Below are positions 7,492 through 20,494 of a DNA stretch of 24,000 nucleotides, piece after piece; position 1 is the stretch's first letter, and the number at the start of each line of letters is the position of its first letter. The DNA is from Moorella naiadis (nom. illeg.). Its GTDB lineage: Bacteria; Bacillota; DSM-521; Neomoorellales; Neomoorellaceae. The stretch spans positions 42,387 through 66,386 of the forward strand of contig NZ_JAXGFQ010000009.1 of the NCBI RefSeq assembly GCF_051020825.1, read 5' to 3'. A program made the translations under genes and the position numbers. Under the pieces are notes generated by a model, which saw nothing but the letters and a program-made list of their open reading frames with translations, searched no databases and was not told the origin of the DNA.

Positions 7492-7531
7492 ATGATTATA
7501 TTTACGGCTTAAAAATTTAATACAGGTTATT

Positions 7532-7560
7532 GGAGGATTTAGGTAAACTATGTCGAAATA
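7532..7560 (+). promoter_or_regulatory. Sigma-H (Spo0H)-like promoter motif, copy A
   Basis: ggAGGATTT, an 11-nt spacer, then gtcGAAAta. The remembered consensus is RnAGGAwWW-N11-12-RnnGAATww, so there is one mismatch in the -10 (GAAA instead of GAAT). Confidence 0.4.
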
Positions 7561-7630
7561 CGAAAAAAATAGTATCCAATAAAGGAGCCAAGGCAATGTT
7601 ATATATCTCAATAAATACCATAAATTCCCT

Positions 7631-7647
7631 GGGGGGGGGGGGGGGGG
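7631..7647 (+). repeat. Homopolymeric G17 tract
   Basis: I counted 17 consecutive G. The flanks (ccct / ATATTTTACCA) are conserved with copy B. Confidence 0.95.
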
Positions 7648-7927
7648 ATATTTTACCACCCCCACCAGAAAAAACAACTACCTTATAGTTATATTATCAT
7701 CCCCCTCTTTCTCTTTTGCTATTTTTATCTATCTTGTGATTCCTCCAGCCTGTCTTGCGATCTGGGGCCGCAAGACCCTATCTTACCATATACCCCCTCC
7801 CCTCTTTATCTTCCAGGTGATTTATTACGTTTACGATCGTTACGCTCGCCACCATTCCTCTGATCAGGGTTGCCTTATTACCTTCAGCTGCAAGTGATAA
7901 TTACCGCGGCTTACAGGAGGCAATGCC

Positions 7928-7990
7928 ATGAGCAGAGGCCTATTGGAGATGGGAGTCACTAAAGTGCGCCTCAGCAGCAAAGAAATCTAA
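7928..7990 (+). pseudogene. 20-codon remnant of an HD-GYP gene 5' end (may act as a uORF)
   Basis: AGGAGG is followed 8 nt later by an ATG. The peptide MSRGLLEMGVTKVRLSSKEI* aligns with the N-terminus of the HD-GYP protein at 19484 (MSKDSSFMGARIVPRLTINY), and nucleotide homology continues upstream. It stops 15 nt before the CheY start. Confidence 0.5.
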
Positions 7991-8005
7991 CTGGAGGCAA
8001 ATTTA

Positions 8006-8371
8006 ATGGCTCATTTAATCTTACTGGTAGAAGATAATGAAGCTAATAGAGTGCTGTTAAAGGATATCCTGGCGTTGACCGGCAATGAGGTTTTAGAAGC
8101 CGTTAATGGCGAAGCAGCGGTCCAGCTGGCGCAAGAACAAAAGCCACAATTAATTTTTATGGACTTGCAGCTACCGGGTATTGATGGGATAAAGGCGACT
8201 AAAATCTTGAAACAGAATCCCAGCACCAGGGATATACCTATTGTGGCCGTTAGTTCTTATGCCTATGCAAGGGAAAAGCAACTTTTCCTGGCAGCCGGGG
8301 GCAATGTTTACCTGTCCAAGCCTATAGATGTTGATCTAATCTTAGCAACAGTGAGCCGGTTTTTGCCATGA
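8006..8371 (+). CDS. Single-domain CheY-like response regulator receiver
   Basis: It carries the acidic pocket (VEDNE), the phospho-acceptor (FMDLQLPGIDG) and the conserved SKP lysine. GGAGG lies 8 nt upstream. By manual alignment it is about two-thirds identical to the receiver at 11361-11753. Confidence 0.9.
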   Translation: MAHLILLVEDNEANRVLLKDILALTGNEVLEAVNGEAAVQLAQEQKPQLIFMDLQLPGIDGIKATKILKQNPSTRDIPIVAVSSYAYAREKQLFLAAGGNVYLSKPIDVDLILATVSRFLP

Positions 8372-8454
8372 AAGCATGAAAGATGGATAATATATAATTA
8401 ATTTGCTGCCAGGCACTCAAGAAATTATTAGATATGCCGATGATTCTTTTTAAG

Positions 8455-17584: not shown

Positions 17585-18900
17585 TGGAGGGCGAGCCCGC
17601 AATGGAAATAAAATGGCAGGAAGCCTACCTCGAGCTCTTACGGCAATATAGCCGGCAGCAGAGCGAAGCCATCCTCTATGAAGCCTCAAAATTGAGCAAA
17701 GCGCTGGTTGAGAGGGGCGTTGGTCCTGAAGATCTAGTCCAATTTCACTTGGAAGCCCTGGAAGGACTCTTCAGGGATATCTCCCCCTTGCGGGTACCGG
17801 GCCTGATTCTCATGTCCTTCGACCTGCTTCTGGAAGTAATGATGGCTTACGCCCTCAGTTTTCGGGAATACCTGGAGGTAAAAGATAAACTCATTGCGCG
17901 TCTGGAAACCTTTAATCAAGAATTAACTGCCGCCAACAGCAACCTGGAAACGAAAGTGCAAGAGCTTACGGTAATCCAGGATATGACCAGGGAATTGGGT
18001 GCCTGTTTGGACCTGGAGCTGACAGCCAGAATTATTACCCGGCACCTGCGGGAGCTGTTCCACTGCACCGGCGGATTGTACCTGGTCAATGGCAGCGGCG
18101 AATGGCAAGGTTATACCCTGGAAGAAACCCTGGTGCATAGTGCCCCGCCGGGAGATCTGGCAGCCGGAGCCAGACAATCGGCCAGGCTAGCAGGGCGAGA
18201 CTTGACCCTGCCCTTGGTCATCGGCCAGGAGGTTGGCGGCGCCGTCTTTTTACAAAAAGAAGGAGGATTTAGCGCCGACGAGGTCCGGTTGGCGGAGATC
18301 ATCGCCGGTTATGCCGCCTTGGCCGTTGAGCGCGCCCAGCTGTACGAAGCCATGAAACGCCAAGCCACCATTGACGCCAAGACGGGTTTATATAACTACC
18401 AGCATATGATGGAGTTGCTAGAAAAAGAGCTGGCCCGCGCCCGGCGTTACCAGCGTACCTTTACCTTAGCCATGCTCGATATCGATGACTTTAAGGTTTA
18501 TAACGACACTCACGGCCACCGGCAGGGAGACAAAACCCTCCAAAGAATAGCAGCCATCATCCAATCCAGCATCCGGGAGGTCGATATAGCAGCGCGTTAC
18601 GGCGGCGAAGAATTTGTCATGATCATGCCAGAAACTAATACCCTGGAAGCAACTGCTGTAACCGAAAGGGTACGCCGGAATATCATGAACGCCGCTATCG
18701 ATAATGAGGGCTGCGGTCCGGGCCGGGTGTTGACGGTGAGTATCGGGCTGGCCACCTACCCTCTGGATGCCGCCACAATCGGGGAGTTGATTGATGCTGC
18801 CGACAGCGCCCTCTACATGGCCAAGGCACAGGGGAAAAACACGGTCCGAGTGTTCGGTAAAGCTGACAGGTGGCGATCTGATAAGGAAAGGGTCTTTTAG
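17584..18900 (+). CDS. Diguanylate cyclase with RsbU_N-like, GAF and GGDEF domains
   Basis: The N-terminus resembles the RsbU N-terminal (RsbT-binding) helical domain: WQEAYLELLRQYSRQQSEAILYEASKLSKALVERGVGPEDLVQFHLEAL. A GAF-like middle follows. The GGDEF domain has TGLYNY, DIDDFKVYNDTHGH, an active-site GGEEF and an RxxD I-site (REVD) 5 residues upstream. The start is ATG 17584 (TAATG overlap) or ATG 17602 (GGAGGG 10 nt upstream). Confidence 0.9.
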   Translation: MEGEPAMEIKWQEAYLELLRQYSRQQSEAILYEASKLSKALVERGVGPEDLVQFHLEALEGLFRDISPLRVPGLILMSFDLLLEVMMAYALSFREYLEVKDKLIARLETFNQELTAANSNLETKVQELTVIQDMTRELGACLDLELTARIITRHLRELFHCTGGLYLVNGSGEWQGYTLEETLVHSAPPGDLAAGARQSARLAGRDLTLPLVIGQEVGGAVFLQKEGGFSADEVRLAEIIAGYAALAVERAQLYEAMKRQATIDAKTGLYNYQHMMELLEKELARARRYQRTFTLAMLDIDDFKVYNDTHGHRQGDKTLQRIAAIIQSSIREVDIAARYGGEEFVMIMPETNTLEATAVTERVRRNIMNAAIDNEGCGPGRVLTVSIGLATYPLDAATIGELIDAADSALYMAKAQGKNTVRVFGKADRWRSDKERVF

Positions 18901-18930
18901 CCAGGGGACAGCAATATGGCTGTCCCCTGG
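18901..18930 (+). terminator. Strong hairpin, probable terminator of the stressosome-DGC operon
   Basis: ccaggggacagc-aatatg-gctgtcccctgg is a perfect 12-bp stem. The downstream T tract is short (cttt). Confidence 0.65.
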
Positions 18931-19011
18931 CTTTAATACTGGGTTAAGGTGACTTAGGGAAACAGCGATTAATTTCGCTTAAAAGTGATGCTGTAAAAAT
19001 TGATGTAGGAT

Positions 19012-19040
19012 GGAGGATTTAGGTAAAACGTGTCGAATAA
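19012..19040 (+). promoter_or_regulatory. Sigma-H (Spo0H)-like promoter motif, copy B
   Basis: ggAGGATTT, an 11-nt spacer, then gtcGAATaa. This is a full match to the remembered consensus RnAGGAwWW-N11-12-RnnGAATww. Confidence 0.5.
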
Positions 19041-19111
19041 AAAATATGCAATAAATACCAATAAAGAGGGCGAAATAATGCTATTAAGCCCCACTAATCC
19101 CAGTAACTTCC

Positions 19112-19125
19112 GGGGGGGGGGGGGG
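19112..19125 (+). repeat. Homopolymeric G14 tract
   Basis: I counted 14 consecutive G at the same position in the element as the G17 of copy A. Confidence 0.95.
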
Positions 19126-19483
19126 TATATTTTACCATCCCTACCAGAAAAAATAAATCCCCCATGCCTGGATGTATTCGTTTTTCCTTCCCTATGCTTC
19201 ATATCCGGCGCAAGAACTACTCCCTCAACGCTGCAAGCACCCTCCGGCCTGTCTGCTTACCCGCGGTTGCAAGGCCATATCTTGCCTTCTACCCGTGCTA
19301 ATTTCCCAAGCGCGGATCATTCCCTTTTACGCTCTTTATATCCTTTACGGTCGCCCCCTGGTCGAGACTACCCTCATAAGCACCGGCTGCTCTTAAACAC
19401 TATTACTTTACGCATCTTTAACCTAGATGTAGCATAGCAGCTGAAGTCAAACCTTTTAACATCGCACCCAGGGGGGTCTGGCC

Positions 19484-20494
19484 ATGAGCAAAGATAGTAG
19501 TTTTATGGGCGCAAGGATTGTTCCCAGATTAACAATCAACTATCTAGTCTTGCCAAACCCTACAGTGAGAATATTTTTACGGGGTACAGCTTTCCTTTTA
19601 TTAATGGTCGTTACGATGTTGAACTATCACGTTCGGAACCTGCCGGCCCAGATTATCATCGATTTTCTGTACCTTATTCCGATAACCGTAGCCGCAATGA
19701 ATTCCTTCATTGATGGCCTGGTAACCGCCCTGGCGGCAGGTTACCTGCGTCTCTTTATCAACCCGGTGACCTTTTCCTTCCTCAAAGCTACTGATTATGT
19801 TGATTTGATTATAGTTTTAGGCTTTTACCTGCTGGACCCCGTGCTGGTAGAACTATTAAGGCGTCTCGCCCGGCAGCGGCGACAACTGGGCCAAAACCTG
19901 TATATTACTACGGCCGCCCTGCTGGAGGCATTACATCTGCGTGACCAGTATACCGGCCGGCACTCGCGCCAGGTAGCTGGTTATGCCCGCCGGCTGGCCG
20001 CCGCTTTAGATTTACCCCGGGATTATCAAGAGAGCCTGTACCTGGCCGGATTACTCCATGACATCGGGAAAATTGGCATTAATGACGCCTGCTTGAATAA
20101 ACCAGGGCGGTTGACGCCGGAGGAATGGCAAGCTATCCGCCGCCACCCGCAGTTAAGCTACAATATAGTAAAAAAGGTTGATAAAATCGAAGAAGGGATT
20201 GCCCGGGCAGTCCTTTATCACCACGAACGCTATGACGGCCGGGGCTACCCCCAAGGGCTGAAGGGAGAGGCTATTCCCCTAGAAGCACGTATCTTAAGTG
20301 TAGCCGATTGCTATGACGCCATGACTACCAACCGGGTTTACCGGCCCGCCCTGACCCCGGTTGAGGCTGTCAGGGAGTTAAAGCGTTGCGCCGGTAGCCA
20401 GTTTGATCCGCAAATAGTGGATGTTTTTTGCCGTATCCTGGCCGCAGATGGTCTTAATCAAGATCATAAAGATAAAGCCCACGATCTTTGCTAA
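19484..20494 (+). CDS. Membrane-anchored HD-GYP domain protein (c-di-GMP phosphodiesterase type)
   Basis: The N-terminal part of about 120 aa is hydrophobic (several TM spans). The HD-GYP motifs are HDIGK and HHERYDGRGYP. The SD AGGGGGG lies 7 nt upstream of the ATG. Confidence 0.9.
   Translation: MSKDSSFMGARIVPRLTINYLVLPNPTVRIFLRGTAFLLLMVVTMLNYHVRNLPAQIIIDFLYLIPITVAAMNSFIDGLVTALAAGYLRLFINPVTFSFLKATDYVDLIIVLGFYLLDPVLVELLRRLARQRRQLGQNLYITTAALLEALHLRDQYTGRHSRQVAGYARRLAAALDLPRDYQESLYLAGLLHDIGKIGINDACLNKPGRLTPEEWQAIRRHPQLSYNIVKKVDKIEEGIARAVLYHHERYDGRGYPQGLKGEAIPLEARILSVADCYDAMTTNRVYRPALTPVEAVRELKRCAGSQFDPQIVDVFCRILAADGLNQDHKDKAHDLC

Follow-up and report, generated by a model that had tools for sequence, protein, structure and literature searches.

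The 24,000-nucleotide (nt) window analyzed here (contig C9:42387-66386 of the Moorella naiadis genome G000, which comprises 3.47 Mb in 80 contigs) contains a 13-kb block of genes and RNA elements related to the synthesis, degradation, and sensing of cyclic di-GMP (c-di-GMP). The block is probably a reshuffled patchwork of cassettes around a known stressosome-cyclase module, not a fixed circuit. We consider it likely that at least six separate transcription units are present, and that they form an evolutionarily fluid but real cluster. They probably all work on one c-di-GMP pool that is shared throughout the cell. The predicted degrading arm appears to be the older unit, conserved across genera, and the only conserved unit of the block. 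A preliminary description of this DNA had proposed a self-contained, co-evolving 13-kb module. The parts that it listed, which are one diguanylate cyclase, two HD-GYP proteins, a riboswitch, a FliD-like gene, a PAP2 lipid phosphatase gene, and two pairs of repeated regulatory sequences, were all found in place by Pfam (proteins), Rfam (RNA), and motif inspection, and look intact (Table 1).

Conservation across relatives had been set beforehand as a check of the module, and no conserved linkage was found for the whole block. The complete block is absent from all 12 other genomes of the genus (13 including G000) and from the 15 further genomes of the order that were searched, and its parts occur independently. 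The co-evolving module is thus not conserved as a unit. The nearest relatives are G011, with 92% nucleotide identity to the window, and G009, with approximately 90%. The order in G011 is riboswitch gene, stressosome-cyclase operon, and OmpR-kinase pair, and the stretches 2443-8385, 9690-15281, and 18967-20511 are missing. A 55-residue HD-GYP remnant is retained further along, and a full-length orthologue of the membrane HD-GYP protein was found nowhere in the G011 genome. The genome G009 lacks 7334-8393, which contains leader A and the receiver REC_a, and has a clean junction from codon 147 of the kinase to codon 15 of PAP2, with 10331-15219 missing. The junction is a deletion, and therefore the ancestor of G009 had the stretch from the kinase to PAP2. 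The order in G005, a Moorella thermoacetica-like genome with approximately 76% nucleotide identity to G000, is PAP2, OmpR-kinase pair, stressosome-cyclase operon, a 61-residue stub of the CHASE3 kinase, a 257-residue stub with only the HD-GYP domain, and an intact membrane HD-GYP gene. The cyclase operon is found in four of the 13 genus genomes, with one weak match in one other genus of the family, and a related metagenome-assembled genome (L007) was counted as the fifth cyclase-bearing genome; it has a 141-residue kinase stub after the cyclase. G010 lacks the cyclase and carries REC_a, the OmpR-kinase pair, PAP2, the intact operon of kinase, REC, and REC-HD-GYP, and a remnant of the membrane HD-GYP gene. 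An unrelated GGDEF gene, a FliD paralogue interrupted by an insertion, and a membrane HD-GYP gene occur together in G012. Linkage of the riboswitch gene to the cyclase is confined to the three closest genomes.

The c-di-GMP elements of the block are clustered beyond chance. The genome contains 29 such elements: 12 GGDEF genes, nine additional HD_5 genes (from 12 HD_5 matches genome-wide), six riboswitches, one EAL gene, and one PilZ gene. If the 29 elements are placed at random, the probability of at least four in 13 kb is 0.004, and that of at least five in 19 kb is 0.0004, the fifth element being a CBS-GGDEF gene. Eleven of the 29 have a neighbor within 5 kb, as compared with 2.3 expected. 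The block is the largest among several c-di-GMP clusters of the genome; the other clusters in Moorella genomes include pairs of a riboswitch and an HD-GYP gene and runs of GGDEF and HD-GYP genes. The clustering is therefore non-random, but the block is not self-contained, since the CBS-GGDEF gene is located 2.6 kb beyond the end of the window and 24 further elements are elsewhere in the genome. This CBS-CBS-GGDEF gene, with a partial GGDEF match, is on the minus strand at C9:69007-69879 (L033 2621-3493). In other Moorella it is the usual divergent neighbor of the unit formed by the riboswitch and the Cu_amine_oxidN1 gene, whereas in G000 they are convergent and separated by 18 kb.

It is improbable that the 13 kb constitute an integrated, co-evolving circuit that writes, erases, and reads c-di-GMP through outputs of its own (the riboswitch gene, the FliD-like gene, and PAP2) and decides a surface or lifestyle switch. 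Some components of this view stand, namely the non-random clustering, the promoter shared by the cyclase and kinase operons, and the probable former co-transcription of the two in a single operon. The linkage of the block as a whole, the role of FliD and PAP2, and the block-specific nature of the duplications did not hold. The riboswitch gene adjoins the stressosome operon in G009 and G011, but in G005 it lies approximately 960 kb away from the cyclase and next to the CBS-GGDEF gene, where most genomes of the genus have it. Sigma-H-type promoters on two of the units would also fit this view. Against it, none of the other genomes searched has the whole block, the neighbors of the FliD-like gene in three other genera are unrelated, PAP2 goes with the OmpR/HAMP-kinase pair, and four of the five genomes with a cyclase have lost or truncated the phosphodiesterases.

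The core of the patchwork is the stressosome-cyclase operon, which is the orthologue of the characterized MtR/S/T/X/G module of M. thermoacetica and is accessory in the genus. The two systems have the same five genes in the same order and the same RsbU_N-GAF-GGDEF output. The genes rsbR, rsbS, rsbT, rsbX, and that of the cyclase overlap or abut. RsbR has an N-terminal sensor and a STAS domain, and RsbS is a single-STAS scaffold protein (Pfam STAS). RsbR matches the structure of MtR-N (PDB 3ZTA) with 199 bits over residues 1-146, RsbS that of MtS (PDB 2VY9; also 3ZXN) with 201 bits over residues 1-121, and RsbX that of MtX (PDB 3ZT9) with 288 bits, in addition to the Pfam SpoIIE/PP2C family; RsbT contains HATPase_c_2 (51 bits). 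The three structure matches are full-length. The scaffold, RsbT and RsbX within the operon, and the RsbU_N-GGDEF output that characterize a stressosome-cyclase system are thus all present. The cyclase contains RsbU_N (65.5 bits), GAF, and GGDEF (157.7 bits) domains, with GGEEF at residue 340 and the I-site RxxD five residues upstream, which is the canonical spacing. It is 72% identical to a 439-residue MtG-type protein of the M. thermoacetica-like genome. The combination of RsbU_N and GGDEF occurs in only eight clusters of a collection of 5.8 billion proteins, six of which are at least 60% identical to the window cyclase. Distant MtG homologues at the loci L008 and L009 (38% identity) carry a stressosome operon, and neither an HD-GYP gene nor a riboswitch was found within their flanks of up to 10 kb (3.7 kb past the match in L009).

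Activation of the M. thermoacetica cyclase by RsbT was reportedly demonstrated in vitro by Quin et al. in Structure in 2012. To our knowledge, almost nothing else of the c-di-GMP biology of Moorella has been described apart from one in-vitro study of the stressosome cyclase. The write arm of the block would comprise the RsbR/RsbS scaffold, the RsbT kinase, and the RsbX phosphatase; stress would free RsbT, and the freed RsbT would activate the RsbU_N-GAF-GGDEF cyclase, as judged from the M. thermoacetica orthologues. Two later papers describe RsbT and the RsbU_N domain as controlling the stressosome cyclase of M. thermoacetica (PMC12143880; PMC4976288). A metagenome-assembled genome of Syntrophaceae contains a stressosome operon (L011 2193-6383) with RsbR, two RsbT-like proteins, RsbX, and an RsbU_N output in which HD-GYP replaces GGDEF; that operon would couple a stressosome to the degradation of c-di-GMP.

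The erase arm is present in the window in three pieces (7534-8371, 9686-13260, and 19014-20494). The REC-HD-GYP protein matches HD_5 with 118 bits and has the motifs HD365, HH417, and GYP426, whereas the membrane HD-GYP protein matches HD_5 with 150 bits and has three N-terminal hydrophobic segments and the motifs HD192, HH246, and GYP254. Both proteins have the motifs of the HD-GYP family, and hydrolysis of c-di-GMP is predicted for them from sequence. The receiver REC_a is a paralogue of REC_b with 72% nucleotide identity. In Thermanaeromonas toyohensis (L062), the CHASE3 kinase, REC_b, REC-HD-GYP, a leader with a G12 run, the membrane HD-GYP gene, and REC_a are contiguous, with 57-63% amino-acid identity to the proteins of the window. 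At least a remnant of the kinase operon is located beside the cyclase in every cyclase-bearing genome. Because of this contiguity in Thermanaeromonas and these remnants, the erase arm appears to be an old unit. Its genes are co-located across genera, intact in Thermanaeromonas and with decay in G010 and G005. Full-length orthologues of the CHASE3 kinase occur in three of 28 order genomes (G000, G010, and G020), and in all three the membrane HD-GYP gene or its remnant adjoins or is near the full-length kinase gene. Phosphodiesterases occur without the cyclase in G010, G020, G003, G007, and G012, and the cyclase occurs without phosphodiesterases in G009 and G011. The truncated HD-GYP gene of G005 (L003 6383-7156) encodes HDVEK instead of the HDVGK of the intact protein, starts with TTG, lacks the receiver, and may be decaying. 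A group II intron (RF02001, RF01998, and RF00029) is located a few kilobases from the erase-arm genes of G010 (L004 16480-18285).

The CHASE3 kinase would phosphorylate the receiver-HD-GYP enzyme and the free receiver. The arrangement resembles RpfC/RpfG of Xanthomonas in that a kinase gene adjoins that of a REC-HD-GYP protein with intact HD and GYP motifs, and phosphorylation-gated degradation of c-di-GMP is the logic expected from this likeness. In contrast to RpfC/RpfG, the sensor is of the CHASE3 type and not an RpfC-type membrane sensor, there are extra single receivers and a second, membrane HD-GYP protein, a synthesis gene for diffusible signal factor is lacking, and the host is a Gram-positive thermophile. 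Transcription of the membrane HD-GYP gene and the second free receiver would start at a sigma-H-type promoter and run through a long leader that includes a mini open reading frame (ORF) with a hypervariable G run.

The two promoter copies, 9693-9737 and 15361-15405, are the two best sigma-70 matches of the region (TTGACG-17-TATAAT). The copy in front of the kinase operon can be aligned with rsbR promoters from four genomes over the -35 and -10 elements, the Shine-Dalgarno (SD) sequence, and the GTG start. The pair is best read as a footprint left when a rearrangement displaced the kinase operon. The genes from rsbR through REC-HD-GYP were probably once one operon, which is suggested by the kinase stub that abuts or overlaps the stop codon of the cyclase in G005 and L007. 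In the cyclase-bearing Moorella lineage, the write and kinase operons would probably have formed one transcript; here they are split, and each has its own copy of the shared promoter and 5' untranslated region (UTR). Compared with the M. thermoacetica-like genome, where stubs lie downstream of the cyclase, the kinase/REC-HD-GYP operon is here intact and moved upstream with a promoter copy. Because the promoter and 5' UTR are shared, the cyclase and kinase operons are plausibly under one control. Such an ancestral operon speaks for a functional link between making and degrading c-di-GMP, but the link is weak because four of the five genomes with a cyclase have lost or cut the kinase/REC-HD-GYP operon. 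The preliminary description had taken the promoter pair and the pair of leaders as a sign of a co-evolving module. Both pairs exist; however, the former appears to be the rearrangement footprint and the latter belongs to a genus-wide family, and they are not specific to the block.

The many insertions and deletions, the clean junctions at cassette borders, the G+C content of the block, which is below that of its flanks, and the several other c-di-GMP gene clusters in Moorella genomes could all be expected if the juxtaposition were meaningless and a recombination-prone locus had gathered signaling cassettes, aided by the repeated leader and promoter sequences. Such an origin should not preserve the order of the erase arm across genera, leave remnants of the kinase operon next to the cyclase wherever a cyclase was found, or keep the same promoter on both operons after the rearrangement, and we regard it as a little less probable still than the integrated circuit. 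No transposase or integrase genes were found within the window, and a mobile-element origin of the block was therefore set aside.

Several points weigh against the reading of the block as a real cluster built around the stressosome-cyclase module. The genome G009 is only 58% complete, and absences there hold just for its 8.3-kb contig. The gene fragments that suggest the ancestral single operon come from two genomes only. Next to the cyclase, the erase arm has decayed in four of the five genomes with a cyclase; this speaks against the pairing being under strong selection, but could equally mean that the arms are functionally independent. The genome as a whole has approximately 12 GGDEF and 10 HD-GYP genes, and the local riboswitch is one candidate target among six for the enzymes of the block.

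The riboswitch and its gene would form a self-standing unit, which is located elsewhere in most relatives. The aptamer matches RF01051 over the full model length with 84.3 bits, as compared with a gathering score of 35. When the aptamer is enforced in the fold, a 10-bp terminator hairpin of -19.6 kcal/mol followed by a U-rich tail is formed, whereas the unconstrained minimum-energy fold is an antiterminator, in which the 3' strand of the aptamer pairs with the 5' arm of the terminator. The two pairings are mutually exclusive, as in a riboswitch expression platform. Because the aptamer-bound fold forms the terminator and the free fold the antiterminator, the riboswitch is predicted to be of the transcription-terminating OFF type. 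High c-di-GMP should shut off the secreted protein, which contains a Cu_amine_oxidN1 domain and a signal-peptide-like N-terminus. The unit, including the terminator, is conserved in eight of the 13 genus genomes. The predicted direction is that of the class I riboswitches of another Firmicute, Clostridioides difficile, which are OFF switches on surface and motility genes (PMC9286219). Elsewhere in the genome, a sigma-H-type motif is located directly upstream of another c-di-GMP-I riboswitch, which precedes a PilC-like (T2SSF) gene (C2:37948-38069), and a further riboswitch (C26:26710-26799) is separated by approximately 9 kb from the closest flagellin gene on that contig.

No c-di-GMP link was found for the FliD-like gene or for PAP2, which the preliminary description had listed as candidate envelope or surface outputs, and both seem to be bystanders. 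The FliD-like gene belongs to a family of approximately 427-residue paralogues in thermophilic Firmicutes, and the true fliD is in the flagellar locus on C26. The paralogue is approximately 80% identical at the amino-acid level across three genera, far above its surroundings, and is always an orphan with unrelated neighbors; in G012 the interrupting insertion is approximately 1.3 kb long. A riboswitch near the FliD-like gene was searched for, and none was found. As an orphan with unrelated neighbors and no nearby riboswitch, the gene was rejected as a c-di-GMP output. The partner of PAP2 in G005 and G010 is the OmpR/HAMP-kinase pair, which is not a c-di-GMP gene.

The two leaders of the block, A and B, are 88% identical over 7633-7682 and 19112-19161. 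They are two members of a cassette that is widespread in the genus and across Moorellaceae and consists of a sigma-H-type promoter, a translated mini-ORF, a G12-G23 run, and a long pyrimidine-rich leader. In 15 of 15 leader elements from seven genomes, an SD sequence and start codon open a mini-ORF into a G13-G23 run, and most copies are preceded by AGGAWWW-N11-12-RNCGAAW. Among approximately 25 contig-internal G runs of at least 13 nt in the 13 Moorella genomes, approximately 20 are located just upstream of a c-di-GMP-I riboswitch, a membrane HD-GYP gene, REC_a, or a GGDEF gene; the distance from the run to the riboswitch is typically 218-247 nt. Cassette loci beyond the window are L036-L045, L004, L005, and L062-L064. 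The three reading frames after the run end at approximately 14-41, 130-176, or 210-320 nt, so the run length sets the reading frame. The lengths differ between orthologues and are not constant modulo 3: they are 16, 13, 18, 14, 14, 19, and 18 in orthologues of a leader of a riboswitch and HD-GYP gene, and 14, 13, 23, 12, and 7 in orthologues of the membrane HD-GYP leader. Copy B (G14) and its G005 orthologue (G7) have the ORF in the long frame, which ends approximately 50 nt before the HD-GYP start (47 nt in copy B), whereas the ORF of copy A (G17) stops 41 nt after the tract.

These features, a long homopolymer that sets the frame and differs in length between orthologues with conserved flanks, are those of homopolymeric contingency loci such as pilC and opc of Neisseria and the fim promoters of Bordetella, which likewise contain long G or C runs. 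In contrast to those loci, the run is part of a leader peptide that is not conserved and that precedes the regulated gene by hundreds of bases, and not of the gene or its promoter, the runs are unusually long, and the host is a thermophilic acetogen and not a host-adapted pathogen. The C. difficile phosphodiesterase PdcB is phase-variable (PMC9286219): its expression is heterogeneous because of a heritable switch upstream of its gene, an invertible DNA element flipped by a recombinase. The candidate switch here is the G13-G23 run in a translated leader ORF.

It is very unlikely that the G run of these leaders is instead the spacer between the -35 and -10 elements of a phase-variable promoter. 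Although most copies have a TATAAT-like hexamer after the run and orthologous copies differ in run length (7 to 23), there is no consistent -35 element before the run, and lengths of 13-23 are far beyond the workable spacer range. The SD sequence and start codon that lead into the run are conserved in all 15 copies, and the sigma-H-type promoter is upstream of the mini-ORF. Two genomes of another genus, g8 (loci L063 and L064), have a mini-ORF with a G14 or G18 run downstream of a riboswitch and terminator, the reverse of the order in Moorella; therefore, the run is inside the transcript there. In L064, the only locus where this was read, a long leader and a CheW-like gene follow the mini-ORF. 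We favor the translated-leader switch over the promoter-spacer model. The cassette may gate genes for c-di-GMP phosphodiesterases, free receivers, and chemotaxis-like proteins and several c-di-GMP riboswitches, with run length setting ribosome travel along the leader, or transcription of the G run may sense GTP, the substrate of the cyclase; this role is possible, but we propose it only tentatively.

Only noise came from a permissive Rfam search of the leaders (7450-8020 and 18900-19500); they are therefore not degenerate forms of any known riboswitch family. A fixed RNA pairing partner of the G run was rejected because the minimum-energy partner differs between orthologues. A deletion that joined leader A to REC_a is plausible, since the membrane HD-GYP gene is followed by REC_a in Thermanaeromonas; for a "fossil HD-GYP start" where leader A ends, however, the exact match covers only 10 nt (E = 0.12), and this reading was not established. 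Two contigs end in poly-G runs of 55 and 77 nt (C45:13104-13158 and C4:185700-185776), which are assembly artifacts at real G18 and G21 tracts. The contig flanks join C45 to C1 across G18 (C1:18-35; leader, riboswitch, and HD-GYP gene) and C16 to C4 across G21 (C16:6-26; a 731-residue HD-GYP protein, G run, and GGDEF gene).

The sigma-H consensus of Bacillus subtilis consists of the -35 element RNAGGAWWW, an 11-12-nt spacer, and the -10 element RNNGAAT, and spo0A, spoVS, minC, mraZ, and dnaG are sigma-H targets in this species. The consensus is matched at the promoters of leader A (with GAAA for GAAT) and leader B. The genome contains 119 copies of the sigma-H-type motif, as compared with 5-8 in shuffled sequences (approximately 17-fold), and they are located 5-100 nt upstream of spo0A, spoVS (twice), minC, mraZ, dnaG, mreB, and many other genes. 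Examples are C9:23174, C1:66212, C17:39580, C1:198690, and C6:66048. The motif, for which the preliminary description had left room for doubt, looks real and looks like that of a large sigma-H-type regulon.

Table 1 Elements of the c-di-GMP block of Moorella naiadis, numbered from the first nucleotide of the window
Feature	Position	Strand	Remarks
Sigma-H-type promoter motif, leader A	7534-7558	+	AGGATTT-N11-GTCGAAA, motif scan
Leader A mini-ORF	7596-7688	+	SD AAGGAG, ATG 7596; spans G17 tract 7631-7647
REC_a, single-domain receiver	8006-8371	+	Pfam REC, 86.8 bits
c-di-GMP-I riboswitch aptamer	8455-8542	+	RF01051
Riboswitch intrinsic terminator	8573-8610	+	Hairpin 8573-8600 and U-rich tail
Secreted Cu_amine_oxidN1-domain protein (predicted)	8627-9589	+	Pro/Thr-rich tail; followed by terminator 9598-9627
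Copy of rsbR promoter, 5' UTR, SD, GTG	9686-9780	+	TTGACG-17-TATAAT at 9702-9730; heads kinase operon
CHASE3 sensor histidine kinase	9892-11328	+	Two transmembrane segments
REC_b, single-domain receiver	11325-11753	+
REC-HD-GYP phosphodiesterase (predicted)	11737-13260	+	REC and HD_5; RpfG-like architecture
Short FliD paralogue, orphan	13327-14610	-
PAP2 lipid phosphatase	14723-15265	-
rsbR promoter and 5' UTR	15355-15437	+	Promoter 15370-15398
Stressosome genes	rsbR 15438-16256, rsbS 16249-16620, rsbT 16617-17024, rsbX 17006-17584	+	Pfam and structure matches
RsbU_N-GAF-GGDEF diguanylate cyclase (predicted)	17584-18900	+	MtG orthologue; followed by hairpin terminator 18892-18939
Sigma-H-type promoter motif, leader B	19014-19038	+	AGGATTT-N11-GTCGAAT
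Leader B upstream ORF	19078-19437	+	Spans G14 tract 19112-19125; "orf135" of the preliminary description, no family
Membrane-anchored HD-GYP phosphodiesterase (predicted)	19484-20494	+	Followed by terminator 20535-20560
OmpR-type regulator and HAMP kinase	from 20644	+

For comparative genomics, the block is a case in which co-location in one genome overstated integration, and in which relatives single out the degrading arm as the conserved unit. The part of most interest for specialists is the association of long G runs in translated leaders, behind sigma-H-type promoters, with c-di-GMP genes, because the turnover of a second messenger could thereby be made heterogeneous in a spore-former. If this is true, the erase arm would be heritably switchable at the onset of the stationary phase or sporulation. 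For Moorella, which are industrially used thermophilic acetogens, the analysis provides a concrete wiring proposal: stress would promote c-di-GMP synthesis, a phosphorelay responding to an extracellular signal and a stationary-phase promoter would control degradation, and an OFF riboswitch would pass the resulting c-di-GMP level to a secreted protein.

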